This document shows positions 53,539 to 63,862 of a stretch of DNA of 64,000 bases, piece after piece; position 1 is the stretch's first letter; every line of letters starts with the position of its first letter. The notes beneath the pieces are model-generated. The model searched no databases and was not told the DNA's origin. It saw only the letters and a list, made by a program, of their open reading frames with translations. The DNA comes from a virus (lineage: Duplodnaviria; Caudoviricetes): positions 1 to 64,000 of IMG/VR virus record IMGVR_UViG_3300043120_000083; one strand, written 5' to 3'. A program made the translations under genes and the position numbers.

Positions 53539-54870
53539 ATGAATTACGTTTTAAGAGATTATCAAGAAAGGGCAGTTCAGGATGGATTAAACTTCTTCCG
53601 TTCTAAAAGCAAAAAGAATGGGTATATGGTGCTTCCTACCGCAGCAGGGAAATCAATTATCGTTGCTAATATAGCTAAACAACTGAATACCAACGTTTTA
53701 GTTTTACAACCCACCAAGGAGCTTTTATTTCAGAACCATGAAAAATTTATTTCATACGGCTATGATGCTTCAATCTACTCAGCAAGTTTTGATAGCCGGG
53801 AAGTAGGACAAGTGACTTTTGCAACGATAGGGAGTATCTACAAGAAACCTGAATTATTTAAAGATTTTCATTATATCATCATTGATGAGTGCCATTTAGC
53901 TTCCCCGGACGATAGCTCAATGCATAAAAAGTTTTTTAATGAATTGAAAGTTAAGGTTTTAGGGTTAAGTGCGACACCATTTAGGCTGAAAAGCTACAAC
54001 TTCCCAACCCGTCACTCTAAGTTAAACTTTCTTGACCGAATGAGGCCAAAGATTTTTAGTGAACTGGTTCATGTTACTCAGATTCAAGAAATGACAGAAA
54101 GAGGTTACTGGGCACCTCTGGGATACATTAGTAAGCCTTTTGACCGTTCTAAGCTTAAAGTAAATTCAACCGGAGCAAACTACACAGATGATTCTATAAA
54201 ACAAGCTATGATTGAGCAGGATGTTGTTCAACAGGCTTACGAAATGGCTTTGATATTAAAGAAAGAAGGTAGGAAGAAGATTTTAATTTTCATGCCCGAA
54301 ATAGCAATGGCTGAAGAGCTTGCTGAAATGTTAGGGGTTAATGCTGTAAGCAGTAAAACAAAGAAAAAGGAAAGGGAAGAGTATATTAATAATTTTAAGG
54401 CTGGAATTGATTTTGCTATTATAAACGTTAATGTGTTGGCTGTTGGATTTGATGATCAAAGAATAGATGCAATAATAGATGGTAAACCCACTATGTCTCT
54501 GGGTATTTATTATCAGAAGTATGGGAGAGGGGTGAGGGTTGATTTATCCACTAATCCGGTTAAGCATGATTGCCTGATTGTTGATTTGGTAGGTAACTAC
54601 GAAATGTTTGGCAAAATAGAAGATTTCATAATAAAAAAGAATGCAATAGGCAAATGGGCTTTGTTTTGTGGAGATAAGCAACTAACAAATACAGAACTTG
54701 TAAAGGATAAAAATGTAAACCTTGAAGATGAAATAATGGGGTTTGGTAAATATAAAGGAGAGCCTTTCAGGTTCATACCTAAAAGTTACTGGAGATTTAT
54801 TCGAGACAACTTCAAAAGAAGTGCAGAAAATGAGAAGTTATTTAATTATATAGAAACTATTGAATTGTAG
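53539..54870 (+). CDS. SF2 DEAD/DEAH-box helicase (YejH/UvsW-like)
   Basis: 'LRDYQ', 'LPTAAGKS', 'IIDECH', 'LSATPFR', 'QKYGRGVR'; C-terminal 'FGKYKGE' domain. Confidence 0.9.
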   Translation: MNYVLRDYQERAVQDGLNFFRSKSKKNGYMVLPTAAGKSIIVANIAKQLNTNVLVLQPTKELLFQNHEKFISYGYDASIYSASFDSREVGQVTFATIGSIYKKPELFKDFHYIIIDECHLASPDDSSMHKKFFNELKVKVLGLSATPFRLKSYNFPTRHSKLNFLDRMRPKIFSELVHVTQIQEMTERGYWAPLGYISKPFDRSKLKVNSTGANYTDDSIKQAMIEQDVVQQAYEMALILKKEGRKKILIFMPEIAMAEELAEMLGVNAVSSKTKKKEREEYINNFKAGIDFAIINVNVLAVGFDDQRIDAIIDGKPTMSLGIYYQKYGRGVRVDLSTNPVKHDCLIVDLVGNYEMFGKIEDFIIKKNAIGKWALFCGDKQLTNTELVKDKNVNLEDEIMGFGKYKGEPFRFIPKSYWRFIRDNFKRSAENEKLFNYIETIEL

Positions 54871-55078
54871 GCAAATGAATGATATGATAAAAGAAATAGT
54901 TGAGCGTAAACTAAGTTATAATAAAAAACAATTGCAGAAATTTATAGATGTAGGTAATAAATCTGCAATTCGTGACTATGAAGTAAGGTGTCATACATTA
55001 GAGGATATACTTGAAGATGCAGACGAAGCGAATGAAGGTCAACAACCAGGCAGCAACTGCAATATTACCGCATGTTAA
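54860..55078 (+). CDS. hypothetical protein of the distal cassette, possibly frameshifted from a zinc-ribbon C-terminus (55071-55178)
   Basis: 72 aa ending NCNITAC*. The +1 frame continues HVNVSVCPKCGC...WCQNEECDFVEAD*. Confidence 0.5.
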   Translation: MNCRQMNDMIKEIVERKLSYNKKQLQKFIDVGNKSAIRDYEVRCHTLEDILEDADEANEGQQPGSNCNITAC

Positions 55079-55183
55079 CGTTTCGGTTTGCCCTAAATGC
55101 GGTTGTAATAAAATTACTGGAGATGGAACGAAAAGCTGGTGTCAAAATGAAGAATGTGACTTTGTGGAGGCAGACTGAGCGTT

Positions 55184-55272
55184 AACGTCCCGGCTTGTAT
55201 GTGCCGTGCAGGCCGCACACAGTAAATTTTCACGGCACTAACTTAACAAGCATGGCATATTACAAGCTTGTT
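55184..55272. repeat. attC-like site S1
   Basis: AAC(55184), arm GCTTGTATGTGCCGTGC (55193-55209), arm GCATGGCATATTACAAGC (55250-55267), GTT(55270). Confidence 0.8.
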
Positions 55273-55575
55273 AGAAAACGTTTTAGCGCGATGGGCAATA
55301 ATATGATATCAATTCACGATTTAAAGGAAAATCTTTGTAAAAAATATTATGGGAGTAATAGAAAAGTGTATAGACAATGTGACATGAATCAACTTTTGAG
55401 AATGTGGTCTGATTTAAACCATTTAACAGAATTACATGAAAGGACTAGGCTTGTTCCTTACAACCTTGAATTTAGAAGTAAAAAAGCCATCCCTATTTAC
55501 AACGCCCACTTATCAGTATTACAGAAGAAGTACCCACATATTTTAGAATTTCAACAAATGAGGCACATACAATGA
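55252..55575 (+). CDS. cassette hypothetical protein (start uncertain: 55252, 55291 or 55303)
   Basis: Open frame; the first ATG lies inside the right arm of S1. Confidence 0.55.
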   Translation: MAYYKLVRKRFSAMGNNMISIHDLKENLCKKYYGSNRKVYRQCDMNQLLRMWSDLNHLTELHERTRLVPYNLEFRSKKAIPIYNAHLSVLQKKYPHILEFQQMRHIQ

Positions 55576-55793
55576 TTTCACAAATAGCAATTATGATTTT
55601 TGGAGCTTCAGCAATTTGGTTTGTGAGTAGAACTGAAAAATGGAAACGATGGGGCTATATATTAGGACTGTGTGGACAGCCATTTTGGATATATACAACT
55701 ATACAAAATGAACAGTGGGGAATTTTAATCATGACATTGGTTTACGCTTATTCATGGGCACAAGGAATTTGGAATTATTGGATTAAAAAATAG
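55572..55793 (+). CDS. cassette small membrane protein (PnuC/SemiSWEET-like three-helix)
   Basis: 73 aa, three TM helices, 'WGYILGLCGQPFWIY..QWG..GIWNYW'. Confidence 0.6.
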   Translation: MISQIAIMIFGASAIWFVSRTEKWKRWGYILGLCGQPFWIYTTIQNEQWGILIMTLVYAYSWAQGIWNYWIKK

Positions 55794-55797
55794 ATAT

Positions 55798-55974
55798 ATG
55801 GAAACGATTTTTACTAAATTAAGTGGTAATACTTCTGGAAATAAATATGGAGGTTATACAGATCAAAGCATTGTAATAACTCAAATAATTGATGGAGAGC
55901 AGAAAGTTATTATCCTAAATAAAAAAGAGTTAGAAGAATTAGAAAGAGTTATAGGCGCTAAATTTAAAGCTTAG
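55798..55974 (+). CDS. cassette hypothetical protein (58 aa, not in ORF track)
   Basis: METIFTKLSGNTSGNKYGGYTDQSIVITQ...AKFKA*. Confidence 0.55.
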   Translation: METIFTKLSGNTSGNKYGGYTDQSIVITQIIDGEQKVIILNKKELEELERVIGAKFKA

Positions 55975-55999
55975 ACTTGCGGGAAGGAAATGTTTTTCT

Positions 56000-56120
56000 A
56001 ACGTTGAGTATATGATTTCGGTGGCGATTGATTGCAGGACTTTTCGCATACCGACTAACTAACAAGACTGCACAGTGGTTAAATTCGACACCTTAACGCC
56101 ACTGAATTATATACATTATT
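56000..56120. repeat. attC-like site S2
   Basis: AAC(56000), GTATATGATTTCGGTGGCG (56008-56026) / CGCCACTGAATTATATAC (56097-56114), ATT(56118). Confidence 0.8.
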
Positions 56121-56199
56121 AGGTGCTGTACGGTAAATAACCGATAAACTTGATTTGAAAAACTAACGTAAAAAATTAAAAAATAGGGAGGAAATTTTT

Positions 56200-56940
56200 A
56201 TGAAATATATGGGAAGTAAAAACAGAATTGCAAAGCACATTTTACCTATAATGCTAAAATATAGAACACCTGAAATGACTTGGGTAGAACCTTTTGTTGG
56301 CGGTGCAAATATGATTGATAAGGTTGAGGGTAAAAGAATAGGTGGAGAATACAATAAGTATATTGCCGAAATGTGGAAAGCACTTGAAGCAGGATGGATT
56401 CCAAGAAGCGACTATACGAAGGACGATTACTACAACATAAAGGCGAATATGGATAGAAACCCTGCTGAAGCGGGATATGTTGGGATTGCAGTAAGTTATT
56501 GTGGTAAGTGGTTTGGTGGATATGCTGGACTTTGCGACAATAAAAGCCGTGGGCCTGTTGACTACCAAAAACAGGCATACAACAACTTAATAAAGCAATT
56601 GCCAAATATTAAAGGTATTAAATTTATACATAGTAGCTACCAAGACTTAGAAATACCACCAAATAGCCTTATTTATTGCGATCCTCCTTATGAAAGTACA
56701 ACAAAATACAAAGACGACTTTAACCATGCTGAATTTTGGCAATGGTGTAGAGACAAATCAAAAGAAGGACACACCGTATTTGTGAGTGAATATAATGCTC
56801 CAGATGATTTCTACTGCATTAAAAAGGTACAAACAAATACGCAACTTGGAAATGGCTGCCAGACAGGAAGCCAAAATAAGTGCGATAAACTTTTTACCCC
56901 AATGGCTGCGATAGCAGACAAAGAGCGTGGGCTTTTTTAA
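56200..56940 (+). CDS. cassette-borne Dam-like (D12 class) DNA adenine methyltransferase
   Basis: 'KYMGSK', 'EPFVGGAN', 'YCDPPY', 'VFVSEY'. Confidence 0.88.
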   Translation: MKYMGSKNRIAKHILPIMLKYRTPEMTWVEPFVGGANMIDKVEGKRIGGEYNKYIAEMWKALEAGWIPRSDYTKDDYYNIKANMDRNPAEAGYVGIAVSYCGKWFGGYAGLCDNKSRGPVDYQKQAYNNLIKQLPNIKGIKFIHSSYQDLEIPPNSLIYCDPPYESTTKYKDDFNHAEFWQWCRDKSKEGHTVFVSEYNAPDDFYCIKKVQTNTQLGNGCQTGSQNKCDKLFTPMAAIADKERGLF

Positions 56941-56995
56941 TTTTTGGTAATATACTACGAACCTTCATTAAGAGAACGAAGGCAGTATTGCACCT

Positions 56996-57268
56996 AACGG
57001 TAAATGCAAGGGTATGTGCTGCCTTGAAAACTGTACAAAAGTAGATACGAGTAAATAACGATTAAATAATTAAGCGATGGCAAAAATTAATGAATTTGAG
57101 ATAAGCATGGTTTGTTATAATGAAGATAACAAATACACATTAGAAGAAATAAACGATATGCTTGTAGAATGGGCTGAAAGTAAAGATATATACTTAGGTG
57201 GCTCTGTTAAACCGTGTGCGCCGGAGGAAACTTCGGACGAGAGCGCAGCATTACCTTTGCATGGTGTT
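56996..57268. repeat. attC-like site S3 with 222-nt coding loop
   Basis: AAC(56996), ATGCAAGGGTATGTGCTGC (57004-57022) / GCAGCATTACCTTTGCAT (57245-57262), GTT(57266). Confidence 0.75.
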
Positions 57269-57391
57269 AGCCAACAACGTGAACTGTTATTGGCTTTTGC
57301 TAAATGGGAGTACGAAAGTGCAGAATTTGACGACACTAACGAATACTTAGTTGACAAGTTTTTGGAAGAAAAAGCCAATAATTGTGGCTAA
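57077..57391 (+). CDS. cassette hypothetical protein reading through site S3
   Basis: 104 aa. 'AALPLHGVSQQRELL' is encoded by the right arm and GTT box; the stop TAA overlaps the next AAC box. Confidence 0.7.
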   Translation: MAKINEFEISMVCYNEDNKYTLEEINDMLVEWAESKDIYLGGSVKPCAPEETSDESAALPLHGVSQQRELLLAFAKWEYESAEFDDTNEYLVDKFLEEKANNCG

Positions 57392-57514
57392 CGTCAAACT
57401 TGTATAAAATGGCGGGGATATGTAGCACTGACGTATCAACCCGGCATAAACCTTAAATAACAGTGCAAGCGGGCTAAAAAGTCACCACAACCCCGCTTTT
57501 TTATACAAATTGTT
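57390..57514. repeat. attC-like site S4
   Basis: AAC(57390), TTGTATAAAATGGCGGGG (57400-57417) / CCCCGCTTTTTTATACAA (57491-57508), GTT(57512). Confidence 0.8.
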
Positions 57515-57531
57515 GTGGTGCGTTTTTGTTT

Positions 57532-57789
57532 ATGTTTGACAATTGCATATCACAATTAAGGCACGATGTTCAGAAATATCAGGATATATTGAACGCTATT
57601 GAACAGGCTCAACAAAAATTACCTGAGTTTAAAGTAAAGGGCCCTGGGTCAAAGCATGAGTTTTATCTCAATTGTATTGAAGACTGGAAAAAACAAATTG
57701 AAGAATTAGAGGTCACACTTTTACCATCTATGAAAGAATTTGAAGAAAAATATAAAAACAAACACCATTTAAAGGAATTGGGTTTTTAA
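57532..57789 (+). CDS. cassette hypothetical coiled-coil protein
   Basis: 85 aa from ATG 57532; fills the segment between the GTT and AAC boxes. Confidence 0.6.
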   Translation: MFDNCISQLRHDVQKYQDILNAIEQAQQKLPEFKVKGPGSKHEFYLNCIEDWKKQIEELEVTLLPSMKEFEEKYKNKHHLKELGF

Positions 57790-57797
57790 TGCACCAC

Positions 57798-57883
57798 AAC
57801 GGTACGGCAATATGATTAGTTGCCACACCACAGACTTTGAAATTTAGTAATAATTTGACAGGCAATTAATTATATTGCTTGTC
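57798..57883. repeat. attC-like site S5
   Basis: AAC(57798), GGCAATATGATTAGTTGCC (57806-57824) / GGCAATTAATTATATTGCT (57861-57879), GTC(57881). Confidence 0.8.
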
Positions 57884-57901
57884 ATAAATCTGATAAAAAT
57901 T

Positions 57902-58090
57902 ATGAGGAAACTAACTCAAGAACAAAAACAAATGATGGATAGAGCAATAAAGTTTGCACCAGCACGACAGATATTTATGTGGGTGTGGTGGGAGATTTTT
58001 TGCCACCGAAAAGCAGATAAACTTATAAAATGTGTAGAAGTTGGAATGACTTGGATCGCTGCATACACAATCGCAAAAAATGTGCGATAA
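57902..58090 (+). CDS. integrase-proximal cassette hypothetical protein
   Basis: 62 aa from ATG 57902. Confidence 0.55.
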   Translation: MRKLTQEQKQMMDRAIKFAPARQIFMWVWWEIFCHRKADKLIKCVEVGMTWIAAYTIAKNVR

Positions 58091-58099
58091 TTTTTATTT

Positions 58100-58144
58100 G
58101 TTTATAACTATTATATATAAATATTTACCTTTAAACATTTGATT
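58100..58144 (-). other. putative attI-like site
   Basis: GTTTATAAC (58100-58108; minus strand GTTATAAAC) closes the last cassette. It is followed by AT-rich DNA and the integrase start, not by a hairpin. Confidence 0.5.
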
Positions 58145-58954
58145 ATGAATATAAAACACAAATCAACATTAGGAAAATTTGAAAAATATCTTAACCTTAA
58201 AGGATATTCTAAAAGGACTATTGATATGTATATTCATTACACAAAAGAATATATTAATAGTTTTAATAAGCCAGCCATACATTTAACAATTAAAGATTGT
58301 CAGAATTATATAGAATCATATAAATTTTCTTCTAAATCTCAACAAAACCAAATTTATTCATCTTTAAAGGCATACTATAAAAGTGTGTTGAATATTGATC
58401 TTTCACATAAAATATTTTTAGAACGTCCCAGAAAAGAAAAACGTCTTCCACAAATAATAGAGAAAGAATACCTATTGTCCTGTATCAATAATATCAAAAA
58501 TTTAAAACACAAGTCAATAATTTCTTTAGGGTTTTCGGTAGGATTAAGAGTTTCTGAGGTTTGTAATTTAAAGATTGAAGATATTGATTCAAAAAGAATG
58601 ATTATTAATATAAGGCAAGCTAAAGGGAGAAAAGATAGGGTTGTGCCCTTATCTCAGAATATACTTAATCTTTTAAGGGAATATTATAAACAATACAGAC
58701 CAAAAACTTATTTATTTAACGGGCAAAATTCAATCAAATATTCTCCAACTTCCTGCAATAAAATAGTAAAGAAATATATTGGGGAACAATATCATTTTCA
58801 CCAATTAAGACATTCATCCTTCACCTCTCTTTTAGAATCAGGAACAGATTTAAGGATAATACAAAAACTTGCTGGTCATCAAAATTCCAAAACTACAGAA
58901 CTTTATACACATGTATCAAATGAGACTCTTTCTAAAATAAGCCTTCCTATTTAA
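58145..58954 (+). CDS. integron-integrase-like tyrosine recombinase
   Basis: N-terminal SAM-like 'GYSKRTIDMY', 'PRKEKRLP', R 'GLRVSE', K 'AKGRKDR', HxxR 'HQLRHS', 'GTDLRIIQKLAGH', Y 'TTELYTHV'. Confidence 0.9.
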   Translation: MNIKHKSTLGKFEKYLNLKGYSKRTIDMYIHYTKEYINSFNKPAIHLTIKDCQNYIESYKFSSKSQQNQIYSSLKAYYKSVLNIDLSHKIFLERPRKEKRLPQIIEKEYLLSCINNIKNLKHKSIISLGFSVGLRVSEVCNLKIEDIDSKRMIINIRQAKGRKDRVVPLSQNILNLLREYYKQYRPKTYLFNGQNSIKYSPTSCNKIVKKYIGEQYHFHQLRHSSFTSLLESGTDLRIIQKLAGHQNSKTTELYTHVSNETLSKISLPI

Positions 58955-61200: not shown

Positions 61201-63862
61201 ATACACAAGAGAGGAAGCTGTAAAAGCAGCAACGAAGTATTTCGGTGGAGATAGTTTAGCCGGGAATGTGTGGACAGATAAATATTCTTTGAAGGATTCA
61301 GAAGGGAATATTTACGAAAAAACCCCGGATGATATGCACTGGAGGTTAGCAAGGGAGTTAGCACGTATTGAAGCTAAATACCCAAACCCCATGAGCGAAG
61401 AACAAATATTTGGGCTATTAAAAGAGTTTAGGTATTTAGTTCCTCAAGGTGGCCCGATGGCTGGTATTGGAAATAATTTTGTAACAACATCCCTCAGTAA
61501 CTGTTTCGTCATCCCATCTGCAAAAGATTCATATTCAGGGATAATGAAGACAGATCAAGAACAGGTTCAAGTTATGAGGCGAAGAGGAGGTTGCGGACAT
61601 GATATTTCAACCCTTCGCCCTCATGGAACAACAGCCAATGGAGCTAAACTTAAAGGGAATACTGGTTCTACTTTGTTTATGGAACGTTTCTCTAATTCAA
61701 CAAGGGAGACTGCTCAGGACTCAAGAAGGGGAGCACTTATGTTAAGTATGGATATAAAACATCCAGATGCAGAAAGATTTATTGACATGAAAGTTGACAC
61801 TAATAAAGTTACCGGGGCCAATATTTCTGTAAGAATTTCTGATGATTATATGGAAAGCGTTAAGCACAAAGGAAAGTTTAAACAACAATTCCCTATTGAT
61901 TCAGAAAAACCCATAATGGAAAAAGAAATAGAAAGTAAAAAATTGTGGGATAAAATAATTCATAATGCGTGGAAGTCAGCAGAACCCGGAATTTTATTTT
62001 GGGATAATATTTTAAATGAATCTCCAGCTAAAGGGTATGGGGAGGATTGGAAAGAAACATCAACTAATCCGTTAGCCAATTAAATAACGTGCGGATTTAA
62101 AACCTCTTCTTATTGACTTGGACGGTGAACACACACCTACAGGGGGCAAGTTTAAATACAGCTTGAGAGACTAAGCGAAGAGGACACGAAAGTGTATGCG
62201 ATAGTCCAGCGCACAGTAAGAAAGTGTTTGATACTTACGGTGTGAGGCGGTGAGATTCCCCTTAACCCACAAGATAGCTGTAGATTACTGGCTATCAACT
62301 TGTTTTCTTATGTGAATAATCCTTTCACTAAAGAGGCACAATTTGATTTCGGTTTGTTTAAAAAGCATGTAAAATATGCCCAAAGATTAATGGATGATAT
62401 AGTTGACCTTGAGATTGAAAAGATTGATAAAATTATTGAAAAGGTTTTAAAAGACCCAGAACCATTAGAAGTAAAACAAGTTGAATTAAACCTATGGAAA
62501 AACGTAAAAGAACGTGCATTAGAAGGCCGAAGAACCGGATTAGGAGTAACTGCTGAAGGAGATATGTTAGCAGCCTTAAACATGGTATATGGTACTGAAT
62601 TAGCCACTTCATTTAGTGAAGACGTTCATAAAAATTTAGCCATTGCTGCTTATGAGTCTTCTATTGATATGGCTAAAGAAAGAGGAACGTTTAAAATATG
62701 GGATAGAGAAAAAGATTTGAATGGTGGTTCTAAGTTCATTGATCGTATTTACAAACAACTTTCTTCAGAATACCAAAGGAAATGGATTGAGACTGGACGT
62801 AGAAACATTGCTTTGTTGACCATTGCTCCAACCGGAACAACCAGCCTGATGACACAAACAACTTCAGGAATTGAGCCTGTATTTTTGCCTTTCTATAAAA
62901 GAAGAAGGAAGACAGAAGACCCTGAAAAATGTGTATTTACTGATGAAGTTGGTGATATGTGGGAAGAATACATGGTTGTTCACCCTAAATATAAAATGTG
63001 GTATGAGATAAATAGAATGGGTTTTGTAGGTATTGATAAAGTAGATATTGAAGACCTCACGGAAGAAGAGATGGAAACCATCTACAAAATGTCTCCATAT
63101 TACAAAGCAACTTCTAGTGATGTTGATTATTTAGGTAAAGTTGATATGCAGGGTAGAGTTCAAAAGTGGGTTGATCACTCTATTAGTGTCACTATCAATA
63201 TGCCTAAAGAAGTTACAGAAGAAACTGTAGGTGAAGTTTACATGAAAGCATGGGAAGTTGGCTGTAAAGGGGTAACTGTTTACCGTGACGGTTCCCGGTC
63301 TGGAGTTCTTATCTCAGGTAAGGAAGAAAAGAAAGAAGGGGAAATAATTTACAACGATGCCCCTAAAAGACCCAAGAATTTGCCTGTAGATGTTTATCAC
63401 AAAATGGCTTTGGGTAAAGAGTTTACTATCCTTGTAGGTCTTTTAAAAGGAAAACCGTATGAAATATTTGCTTTTGAACAATTATCACAGTCAGAATTTC
63501 CTAAAGAGATAGAAAGGGCAGAGTTAACCAGAGTACGTAAGAATCACTACAGGTTAACCGGATACCGTGGAGAACAAAAGTTTGTCATCGAGAATATTGT
63601 GGAAAATATGAATGATGATGAGAAGTTTCAAACCCGTGATTTTTCTCGTAGTTTAAGGCATGGAGAACATCCTAAATATATCTGTAATGATATTGATAAG
63701 AGTTCTTTTGTGAGTAGTTTTAGGAAGGTTGTAAGTCGGGTTTTGAAAAACTATCTTACTAATGAGGATGTGAAAGACAAATGTCCTGATTGTGGGGGAG
63801 AACTTAAATTTGAGAGCGGGTGCAAACAATGCGATAATTGTGGGTGGTCAGCCTGTGGATAA
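61193..63862 (+). CDS. nrdJ: class II (adenosylcobalamin) ribonucleotide reductase; exons 61193-62072 and 62247-63862 (831 aa spliced)
   Basis: 'SLSNCFV', 'RRGALM', 'SAEPGILF'; splicing restores 'STNPCGEIPL'; 'TIAPTGT', 'GIEP', 'GCKGVTVYRDGSR'; C-terminal Zn ribbon. Confidence 0.93.
62073..62246 (+). ncRNA. group I self-splicing intron (174 nt, no ORF)
   Basis: Exon end AAUCCGU pairs with IGS GCGGAUU (62091-62097), U.G at the splice site. P3 CCUCUUC/GAAGAGG; P7 GACUA/UAGUC; P8 ACAC-GAAA-GUGU; terminal G at 62246. Confidence 0.9.

Follow-up and report, generated by a model that had tools for sequence, protein, structure and literature searches.

A phage gene that overlaps its own predicted recombination site within an integron-like cassette array

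The window analyzed here is a stretch of 64,000 nucleotides (nt), positions 1 to 64,000 of the IMG/VR virus record IMGVR_UViG_3300043120_000083 (Duplodnaviria; Caudoviricetes), a record of approximately 101 kb that is 96% complete and carries every gene on the plus strand; the phage is marine and probably infects Flavobacteriia. Within an array of small cassettes that ends just before a tyrosine recombinase gene lies the cassette studied here. It holds an open reading frame (ORF) for a protein of 104 amino acids (aa), ORF104, and a long-range hairpin framed by boxes of the AAC and GTT types (Table 1). As the AAC...GTT hairpin stands at the coding-strand 5' end, ORF104 begins in the hairpin loop, and its codons continue across the right arm and the GTT box. 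A sequence-only reading of this DNA, in which the hairpin was called S3, had described the elements in this way, with arm and GTT box encoding AALPLHGVSQQ and the stop codon provided by the TAA of GGCTAAC, and each lies where that reading put it; its loop of 222 nt is obtained with the arms trimmed to GCTGC/GCAGC, and the longest pairing leaves 215 nt. Its further claim, that site and coding sequence are superimposed, holds well beyond the window, since the layout recurs with compensating arms in 43 related loci.

Table 1. Features of the ORF104 cassette and its surroundings, in window positions
Feature	Position	Strand	Description	Basis
Cassette array	55070–58108	+	each unit bounded by YAAC
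Left AAC box	56992–56998	+	ACCTAAC; junction with methyltransferase cassette	sequence, comparison
Whole mobile cassette	56998–57392	+	395 bp; hairpin, ORF and closing box	identity block against L003/L005
Left spacer	56999–57003	+	GGTAA, after left AAC box
Hairpin left arm	57004–57025	+	non-coding, 5' untranslated region (UTR)	pairs with 57241–57262
Hairpin loop	57026–57240	+	5' UTR, start codon (57077), N-terminal half of ORF
ORF104	57077–57391	+	104 aa; N-module, residues 1–47; linker and part encoded by right arm, 48–63; C-module from Val64
Hairpin right arm	57241–57262	+	coding (ESAALPLH)
Right spacer			GGT, between right arm and GTT box; final T invariant in 55/55 relatives
GTT box	57266–57272	+	GTTAGCC, read Val-Ser; GTT is Val64
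Invariant 24-mer	57266–57289	+	GTTAGCCAACAACGTGAACTGTTA, GTT box and remainder, read VSQQRELL; module exchange point
C-module	57266–57392	+	second coding hairpin, 127 nt	fold and covariation
C-module stem 1	57266–57277 with 57382–57392		GTTAGCCA-CAA with TTG-TGGCTAAC
C-module internal loop	57278–57286		CGTGAACTG
C-module stem 2	57287–57301 with 57367–57381
Closing AAC box	57386–57392	+	GGCTAAC; right boundary of cassette; TAA at 57389–57391 is ORF stop
Last array box	58100–58108	+	TATAAC, then attI-like TATTATATATAA, about 35 nt before recombinase gene
Recombinase	58145–58954	+	XerA-like tyrosine recombinase, 269 aa	Pfam Phage_int_SAM_4 and Phage_integrase

The boxes ACCTAAC and GTTAGCC form an inverted repeat with arms of 17–22 bp, the AAC/GTT arrangement of an integron attC site, and the spacers between boxes and arms are unequal, at 5–6 nt on the AAC side and 3 nt ending in the invariant T on the other. 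With a span of 281 nt (56992–57272), a position 5' of its ORF and an overlap with it, the site departs from attC in length and placement; bulges are present as well. The minimum-free-energy fold of 56985–57285 on the plus strand yields exactly the long-range stem, and the arms pair with a z of 6.4–8.7 against shuffled arms, while the fold z of the single sequence, weak when taken alone, is −1.9 on the plus strand and −0.6 on the minus strand. A candidate site nested within the loop, with AATAAC followed by G at 57062 and GTTAAAC at 57212, was ruled out because its flanks are not complementary.

The decisive support for the hairpin is comparative and comes from the recurrence of its layout, with arms that differ and compensate for one another's changes. 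The comparison set was fetched by means of the C-module and comprises 6 viral and 80 metagenomic loci, ascertained by the peptide VSQQRELL; L numbers designate loci here and below, whether of this set or not. Across 43 loci with distinct arm pairs, the 25 nt preceding GTT pair with a left arm 96–250 nt upstream that starts 5–6 nt after an AAC (an AAC would lie within 12 nt by chance in 25% of cases), the base after this AAC is G in 35 of the 43, and the arm sequences vary with mutual compensation. When both types of wobble are scored alike, the G.T or T.G pairs of these loci number 107 and the A.C or C.A pairs 12, an imbalance that marks the plus strand as the folding strand, and the G of the wobble pair falls in the non-coding left arm in 80 of the 107. 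The start codon lies inside the loop in all loci scored, 3–59 nt past the left arm. The frame containing GTT is open before it in 73 of 74 loci and after it in 74 of 76, the remaining two frames being nearly always closed, and differences among related copies number 149 at third codon positions as opposed to 70 and 54 at the others; the comparison shows an ORF under selection at the level of protein. The entire design, hairpin together with C-module, is present in gp58 of the cultured, lytic Polaribacter phage P12002L, where gp58 directly follows the annotated HNH endonuclease gp59 (L103:3316–4110). Overprinting also extends beyond the C-module family: a 125-aa ORF in L003 reads LFSVSN across GTTAGCAAC, and a 94-aa ORF in L013 reads LLG across GTTAGGCAAC. 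In the distal of two tandem C-module cassettes of L015 (2211–2427), a right arm, a GTT box and a C-module are present, but no AAC box or left arm stands upstream; a left arm that matches lies downstream, within the next cassette.

Whole cassettes, as comparison of their sequences shows, travel as units that run from AAC to AAC. ORF104 occurs letter for letter on five contigs, two of which, L003 and L005, belong to a different phage. There, the counterpart of positions 56998–57392 is 100% identical, with both ends of the identity falling inside the CTAAC boxes, while the flanks are approximately 72% identical or unrelated: the methyltransferase gene shares about 72% DNA identity, the pair of small ORFs found 3' of ORF104 in the window is absent or relocated, and the recombinase of this context is about 50% identical to that of the window. 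Both phage contexts of the cassette were assembled independently at least twice each. Further AAC-to-AAC blocks with unrelated flanks were found between L084 and L101 and between L030 and L034, and the cassette holding a 62-aa ORF (57801–58108) occupies another array position in L003. The boundary coincided with the conserved triplet in four cassette comparisons, at a resolution of 1 nt, the module borders observed were AAC/GTT hairpins, and no cassette with GTT bounds on both sides was found among the identity blocks compared. Since whole cassettes are bounded by the plus-strand AAC and not by GTT, the ordinary crossover would fall outside the ORF.

The surroundings of the cassette resemble an integron seen from the other side. 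Read on the minus strand, the array has integron topology in its predicted elements, with a divergent integrase gene, an adjoining attI and cassettes that end in a site; because the genes are on the strand that folds and are directed toward the recombinase, each site stands 5' of its gene. The YTAACG boxes of the plus strand are concentrated within 55075–57393. A junction without a hairpin, YAAC/TAYNATATA (the slash marks the boundary), was recognized by eye 30–50 nt before the recombinase start in the window, L003, L006 and L008, in all of which a recombinase with the IntI/Xer domain set directly follows the array, and the regions upstream of the recombinases of L003, L006 and L008 contain textbook AAC-arm-loop-arm-T-GTT hairpins of 60–135 nt. 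Across 40 loci, AAC...GTT hairpins numbered 114 on the coding strand and 28 on the opposite strand, compared with 2 in shuffles. The window recombinase falls under every NCBIfam cut-off, XerA being the best among these profiles; TIGR02249 matches it in two pieces at 148.6 bits (cut-off 265), its closest solved relative is the archaeal XerA (PDB 4A8E, 1e-42), and relative to IntI4 (PDB 2A3V) it is shorter by approximately 50 residues, its residues 192–218 (27 aa) facing 77 aa. Among the relatives are arrays of 2–12 sites with no recombinase, which are by definition clusters of attC sites without an integrase (CALINs), while the window itself has the Xer-like enzyme.

From the GTT box onward, the C-module forms another unit that is both structured and coding. 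Its 127 nt, which run from GTT through the closing AAC, fold by themselves with a z of −3.3, and over 55 sequences stem 1 and the unpaired CGTGAACTG do not vary, stem 2 has compensatory changes in 7 of 9 pairs (64 cells) and 96% of cells overall are paired, values that none of 500 shuffles reached. The 3' word of the module, AATTGTGGCTAAC, is retained in 54 of 59 loci, even where a stop in another frame occurs 8–14 nt earlier. Of 76 distinct loci, 60 have an identical copy of the 24-mer that opens the module, all eight synonymous sites included; ascertainment by VSQQRELL overstates the invariance of the word as protein and leaves that of the synonymous sites unaffected. Mean pairwise identity is 0.97 in the 24-mer, 0.54 in the 24 nt preceding it and 0.37 after it, and the word has two alleles, CAA..CGT and CAG..CGC. 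Exact copies occur on 63 viral contigs and in 3 of 185,579 prokaryote species genomes, namely a Flavobacteriales metagenome-assembled genome (MAG), a Maribacter genome and one small MAG contig.

Comparison further shows that the part consisting of the hairpin and the N-terminus assorts independently of the C-module, with the break inside the invariant 24-mer. In 20 pairs of loci the C-modules are 93–100% identical and the upstream sequences unrelated, identity beginning 1–3 nt before GTT and usually ending at the closing AAC, and in 7 pairs the relation is reversed, with a shared upstream part whose identity ends 26–28 nt past the G. At least seven C-module alleles each occur with 2–5 different heads, and 71 N-terminal parts, the variable portion having a median of 46 codons, fall into 56 clusters with no detectable similarity to one another. 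From GTT onward, the sequences of L039 and L064 agree fully over more than 700 nt, and immediately before it they are unrelated. The piece swapped in L064 extends from the ATG to GTT, leaving a new right arm that does not pair with the resident left arm, and the swap in L013 begins at the ATG and ends where the right arm starts; both patterns are more in keeping with homology or selection than with cutting guided by the hairpin. Since the observed breakpoints are the edges of the invariant 24–27 nt, a cut between G and TT and homologous exchange are indistinguishable here, whereas the left ends in L064 and L013, which are not at boxes, favor exchange at any conserved stretch, with recombinants then selected for an unbroken frame. 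Assembly chimeras formed at the 24-mer are an unlikely source of these combinations, because both the reads and the final k-mers in common use exceed the word in length, several combinations were recovered from more than one independent sample (L031/L032/L033/L035 and L084/L099/L101) and the carriers include a sequenced isolate. The first 45 bases of L039 (L039:1–45) are an apparent sequencing-adapter remnant (...AGATGTGTATAAGAGACAG) and not phage sequence.

The proposal in the sequence-only reading that recombination on the GTT side, or exchange between arms, swaps the N- and C-terminal halves at an 'xxHxVS' linker therefore stands in part. The separate searches with each half that it suggested recovered different partners for each, and most relatives have an upstream complementary arm of their own. 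The junction does lie at the GTT box; the crossover there is inseparable from homologous or microhomology exchange, and what is invariant is a DNA word, T-GTTAGCCAACAACGTGAACTGTTA, rather than a peptide motif only. Its observation of the locus is confirmed and its interpretation partly supported, with a site-specific mechanism on the GTT side being possible.

The outcome is a family of small two-part proteins with a constant two-helix tail and a hypervariable head. A search across all proteins of the representative library showed ORF104 to be bipartite: homologues of its N-module are free-standing phage proteins of 45–58 aa, the C-terminal ends of other proteins or heads joined to other tails, and the C-module is found behind many unrelated heads. 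Its closest relatives are P0002, which is 73% identical, and P0003, which has the same N-half with a different C-half. ORF104 has no match in Pfam or NCBIfam and matches PHROG 30067 only at an E value of 0.0037, and an Atlas search with it gave nothing usable. An AlphaFold model of low confidence (mean predicted local distance difference test score 65.6) contains three helices only, with the C-module as a two-helix element. In L105 (289–1356), a free-standing 51-aa homologue of the N-module directly follows a gene with a Gad2 domain (PF26128, an anti-Gabija family) in a tightly packed operon that has thymidylate synthase nearby and lacks hairpins; this neighbor gives only a hint of a possible early or counter-defense setting.

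We favor, at a probability of roughly 0.65, the reading that positions 56998–57392 constitute one gene cassette of an integron-like array, in which the putative recombination site is overprinted with the gene. Each cassette would extend from just after one plus-strand AAC box to the next AAC box and would have at its 5' end a site (AAC, spacer, arm, loop, arm, T, GTT) folded from the gene's own strand. As a loop of any length would be permitted, the gene would here have moved into it; the non-coding left arm tracks changes in the coding right arm, and a second coding hairpin follows GTT and ends in the next AAC box, whose TAA serves as the stop codon. A tyrosine recombinase, either the neighboring XerA-like enzyme or one supplied in trans, may cut between AA and C on the folded plus strand, and the reassortment of N- and C-terminal parts would arise from homologous or microhomology exchange in the invariant word more probably than from a second site-specific cut.

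Several observations weigh against this reading. The loop, of 96–250 nt, greatly exceeds any characterized attC in length, the left junction in L003 contains one extra C and the window recombinase lacks the IntI-specific segment, which places it outside the IntI family. Among 66 other viral stretches with the 24-mer, none contains a homologue of this recombinase, and of five complete phage genomes that carry the word, four have no tyrosine recombinase. The strand that folds is that of the mRNA as well, so a role in RNA would account equally well for the wobble bias. Finally, the strict invariance of the 24-mer, unpaired CGTGAACTG included, is not accounted for by the model.

The strongest competing explanation, which we nevertheless judge unlikely, holds that the GTT box is itself a working crossover, used for example through folding of the opposite strand or in exchange between two attC sites, and that a tyrosine recombinase joins loop-encoded N-terminal segments there in frame to the constant C-module. 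Every identity block confined to the C-module or to the upstream part breaks at the GTT word, as in the pair L039 and L064, the frame across it is constant (xxT GTT AGC) in all loci, and the less favored strand of ordinary integrons also recombines, at a lower rate (PMC9892861). Any crossover within the invariant stretch would give the same breakpoints, however, and in neither L064 nor L013 does the left end of the swapped piece lie at a box, the L064 swap starting at the ATG with its left arm unpaired and the L013 swap ending before the right arm. Hairpins of the opposite strand would be burdened by A.C mismatches, the blocks comprising whole cassettes are all bounded by AAC and none by GTT, and most carrier genomes encode no recombinase. 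An extended form of this explanation, in which the GTT word is a true in-frame joint, a recombinase often provided in trans joins loop-borne N-terminal segments to the C-module, itself a folded DNA site, and CGTGAACTG is the recognition element of the enzyme, seems to us slightly more doubtful again.

The wobble bias and the scarcity of recombinases among the carrier phages would also follow if the hairpins act mainly in mRNA, through translation control, processing or stability, while the cassettes are exchanged by general phage recombination. A 5' UTR segment would then pair with codons 55–62, the C-module would be a 3' structure and the resemblance to a recombination site would be secondary; the folding strand is the coding strand, the wobbles would be G.U, the loop always holds the start codon, which would be accessible there, and the invariant internal loop of the C-module is typical of RNA bound by protein. 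We regard this explanation as improbable: the identity blocks stop exactly at AAC boxes and lack the flanking homology that general recombination would use, no Rfam family matches, and the AAC/GTT triplets, asymmetric spacers, conserved proximal junction and location of the array beside an IntI/Xer-type enzyme fit the layout of a DNA site. In E. coli, IntI1 does recombine attC-type hairpins of other phages, although none of the kind in this array has yet been recombined.

Far less probable than either is that the cassettes owe their movement to a single-strand hairpin transposase acting in trans, of the IS200/IS605 type (Y1 HUH), which inserts on one strand 3' of a short target word, here TAAC. 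The strand specificity of the hairpins, the TAAC-type word that both precedes and ends each unit and the many carriers with no tyrosine recombinase would suit such an enzyme, but no match to the Y1 HUH transposase family (PF01797) was found in the 101-kb genome of the window, whereas control genomes match, and the units form tandem arrays with one common junction beside a tyrosine recombinase in four lineages. Inverted AAC...GTT boxes are the pattern of integrons, unlike the guide and cleavage-site pattern of IS200/IS605. That the long-range complementarity is due to chance and the ORF is no real gene, for which the weak single-sequence fold would speak, is refuted by the arm covariation in 43 loci, the conserved frame and codon-position pattern and the homologues of both halves.

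The preferred reading, an overprinted cassette in an integron-like array, finds its closest precedent in integron cassettes and their attC sites. Both systems share an imperfect inverted repeat with AAC and GTT boxes, an unequal unpaired spacer and a single folding strand; cassettes that end at a conserved triplet and whose own two boxes are complementary (here GTTAGCCA and TGGCTAAC); a tandem array with a hairpin-less junction by the 5' end of a tyrosine recombinase gene; and a stop codon inside the TAAC of a box. In integrons, however, recombination depends on IntI and the bottom strand folds, whereas here the strand of the gene folds and the site is 5' rather than 3' of the gene. The ORF also starts inside the site, the loop of 96–250 nt contrasts with known total site lengths of 57–141 nt, and the recombinase is XerA-like, with no IntI insertion, and missing from most carriers.

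Virulent phages have been described that carry CALINs, Polaribacter phage P12002L among them (Qi et al., 2023; PMC9892861), and the C-module copies in arrays that lack a recombinase make these arrays clusters of the same kind. In that study, five phage sites recombined with IntI1 in E. coli, four of them ordinary short hairpins from two other virulent phages; of the two sites predicted in P12002L, the hairpin-type attC1 failed with IntI1 and attC2 was active (PMC9892861). The former is a short hairpin with a TCGTTTTAATG loop, and the latter lies elsewhere, is not a hairpin of the present kind and is of doubtful structure; as the tested sites of P12002L are not of the kind described here, their strand data leave the polarity of the window sites unsettled. 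The phages are alike in kind and cargo, the methyltransferase gene of the window having 79% DNA identity to that of P12002L, and the hairpin and C-module of gp58 and the loop word of attC1 recur, the latter in arrays related to that of the window. Clusters of attC sites in virulent phages were published previously, and the coding overprint and the junction were not: PMC9892861 describes no long-loop hairpin, ORF overlap, C-module, 24-mer or phage Xer-like recombinase beside an array.

The TCGTTTTAATG-loop hairpins form a short subfamily (approximately 60 nt) of AAC...GTT hairpins with a common loop word and differing arms, found at L008:4405–4470, L008:4825–4880, in L017 after the C-module and in L019 as well as at attC1 of P12002L; in the window, TTTTTAATG, which is similar to TCGTTTTAATG, stands directly before the box at 57784–57792.

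Translation across a crossover point is known from class 1 integrons, where ORF-11 of attI1, a leader of 11 aa, helps the first cassette to be translated, and from fused cassettes and N-terminal variants of aacA4, the known fusions being products of attC loss (PMC8876359). There too the sequence of the ORF is set by what is joined at the crossover, and a neighboring unit supplies the stop or the N-terminus, whereas here an intact site is maintained inside a conserved protein gene in dozens of lineages. In polymorphic toxins, conserved junction motifs such as VENN, which precedes CdiA-CT, are recombination points for module swapping. Like them, the 24-mer is a short conserved word between a constant and a hypervariable domain that assort independently; unlike them, it lies within a folded, recombination-type site, the variable part is N-terminal and small, and no toxin/immunity pair is evident. 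Promoter-early stem-loop (PeSL) cassettes shuffle small ORFs in T4-type phages as promoter/terminator units whose exchange is driven by homology. They resemble the present cassettes in that small phage ORFs bounded by conserved structured intergenic elements are swapped as modules, and differ in lacking AAC/GTT boxes, an adjoining tyrosine recombinase and overprinted ORFs.

The right arm of a second hairpin, S1, had likewise been described as readable in frame, which is weakly confirmed: an ATG at 55252 lies in the arm with GTT 55270 in frame, but the gene call on an identical contig starts at 55291 and the S1 fold, with a z of −1.4, is not significant by itself. The cassette at 55187–56002, bounded by GTTAGAAAACG and TGTTTTTCTAAC, contains three small ORFs (55252 or 55291 to 55575; 55572–55793, a PnuC-like membrane protein by PHROG; and 55798–55974), so that array cassettes are not restricted to single genes. 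Upstream, a 55-aa ORF (55011–55178) with a zinc-ribbon-like CPKC...C..EEC pattern and a faint PHROG match to an HNH endonuclease (E 0.009) reads across the first AAC box (55075–55079) and overlaps the end of a 67-aa ORF (54875–55078), whose stop is the TAA of that box. No credible Rfam match was found across 54800–58200. Downstream of the array, a 306-nt intergenic region (62084–62389) has G+C above its surroundings and many short complementary runs, with no Rfam match.

Integron cassettes are normally described with the gene before its site; here the order is the opposite, and the gene would be written into the site. If the favored reading is right, a recombination site of folded DNA can accommodate a loop longer than 200 nt together with a full coding load, the non-coding arm absorbing the compensation. 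As the carrier P12002L, with gp58, is cultured and lytic, both the recombination step and the role of the protein are directly testable. The cassette belongs to a widespread element of marine Flavobacteriia-type phages in which one constant module is tied to dozens of unrelated heads, and a constant tail with a variable head is a pattern typical of fast-evolving interaction proteins. Were the GTT word to prove a true joint, marine phages would assemble two-part proteins combinatorially by site-specific DNA recombination.

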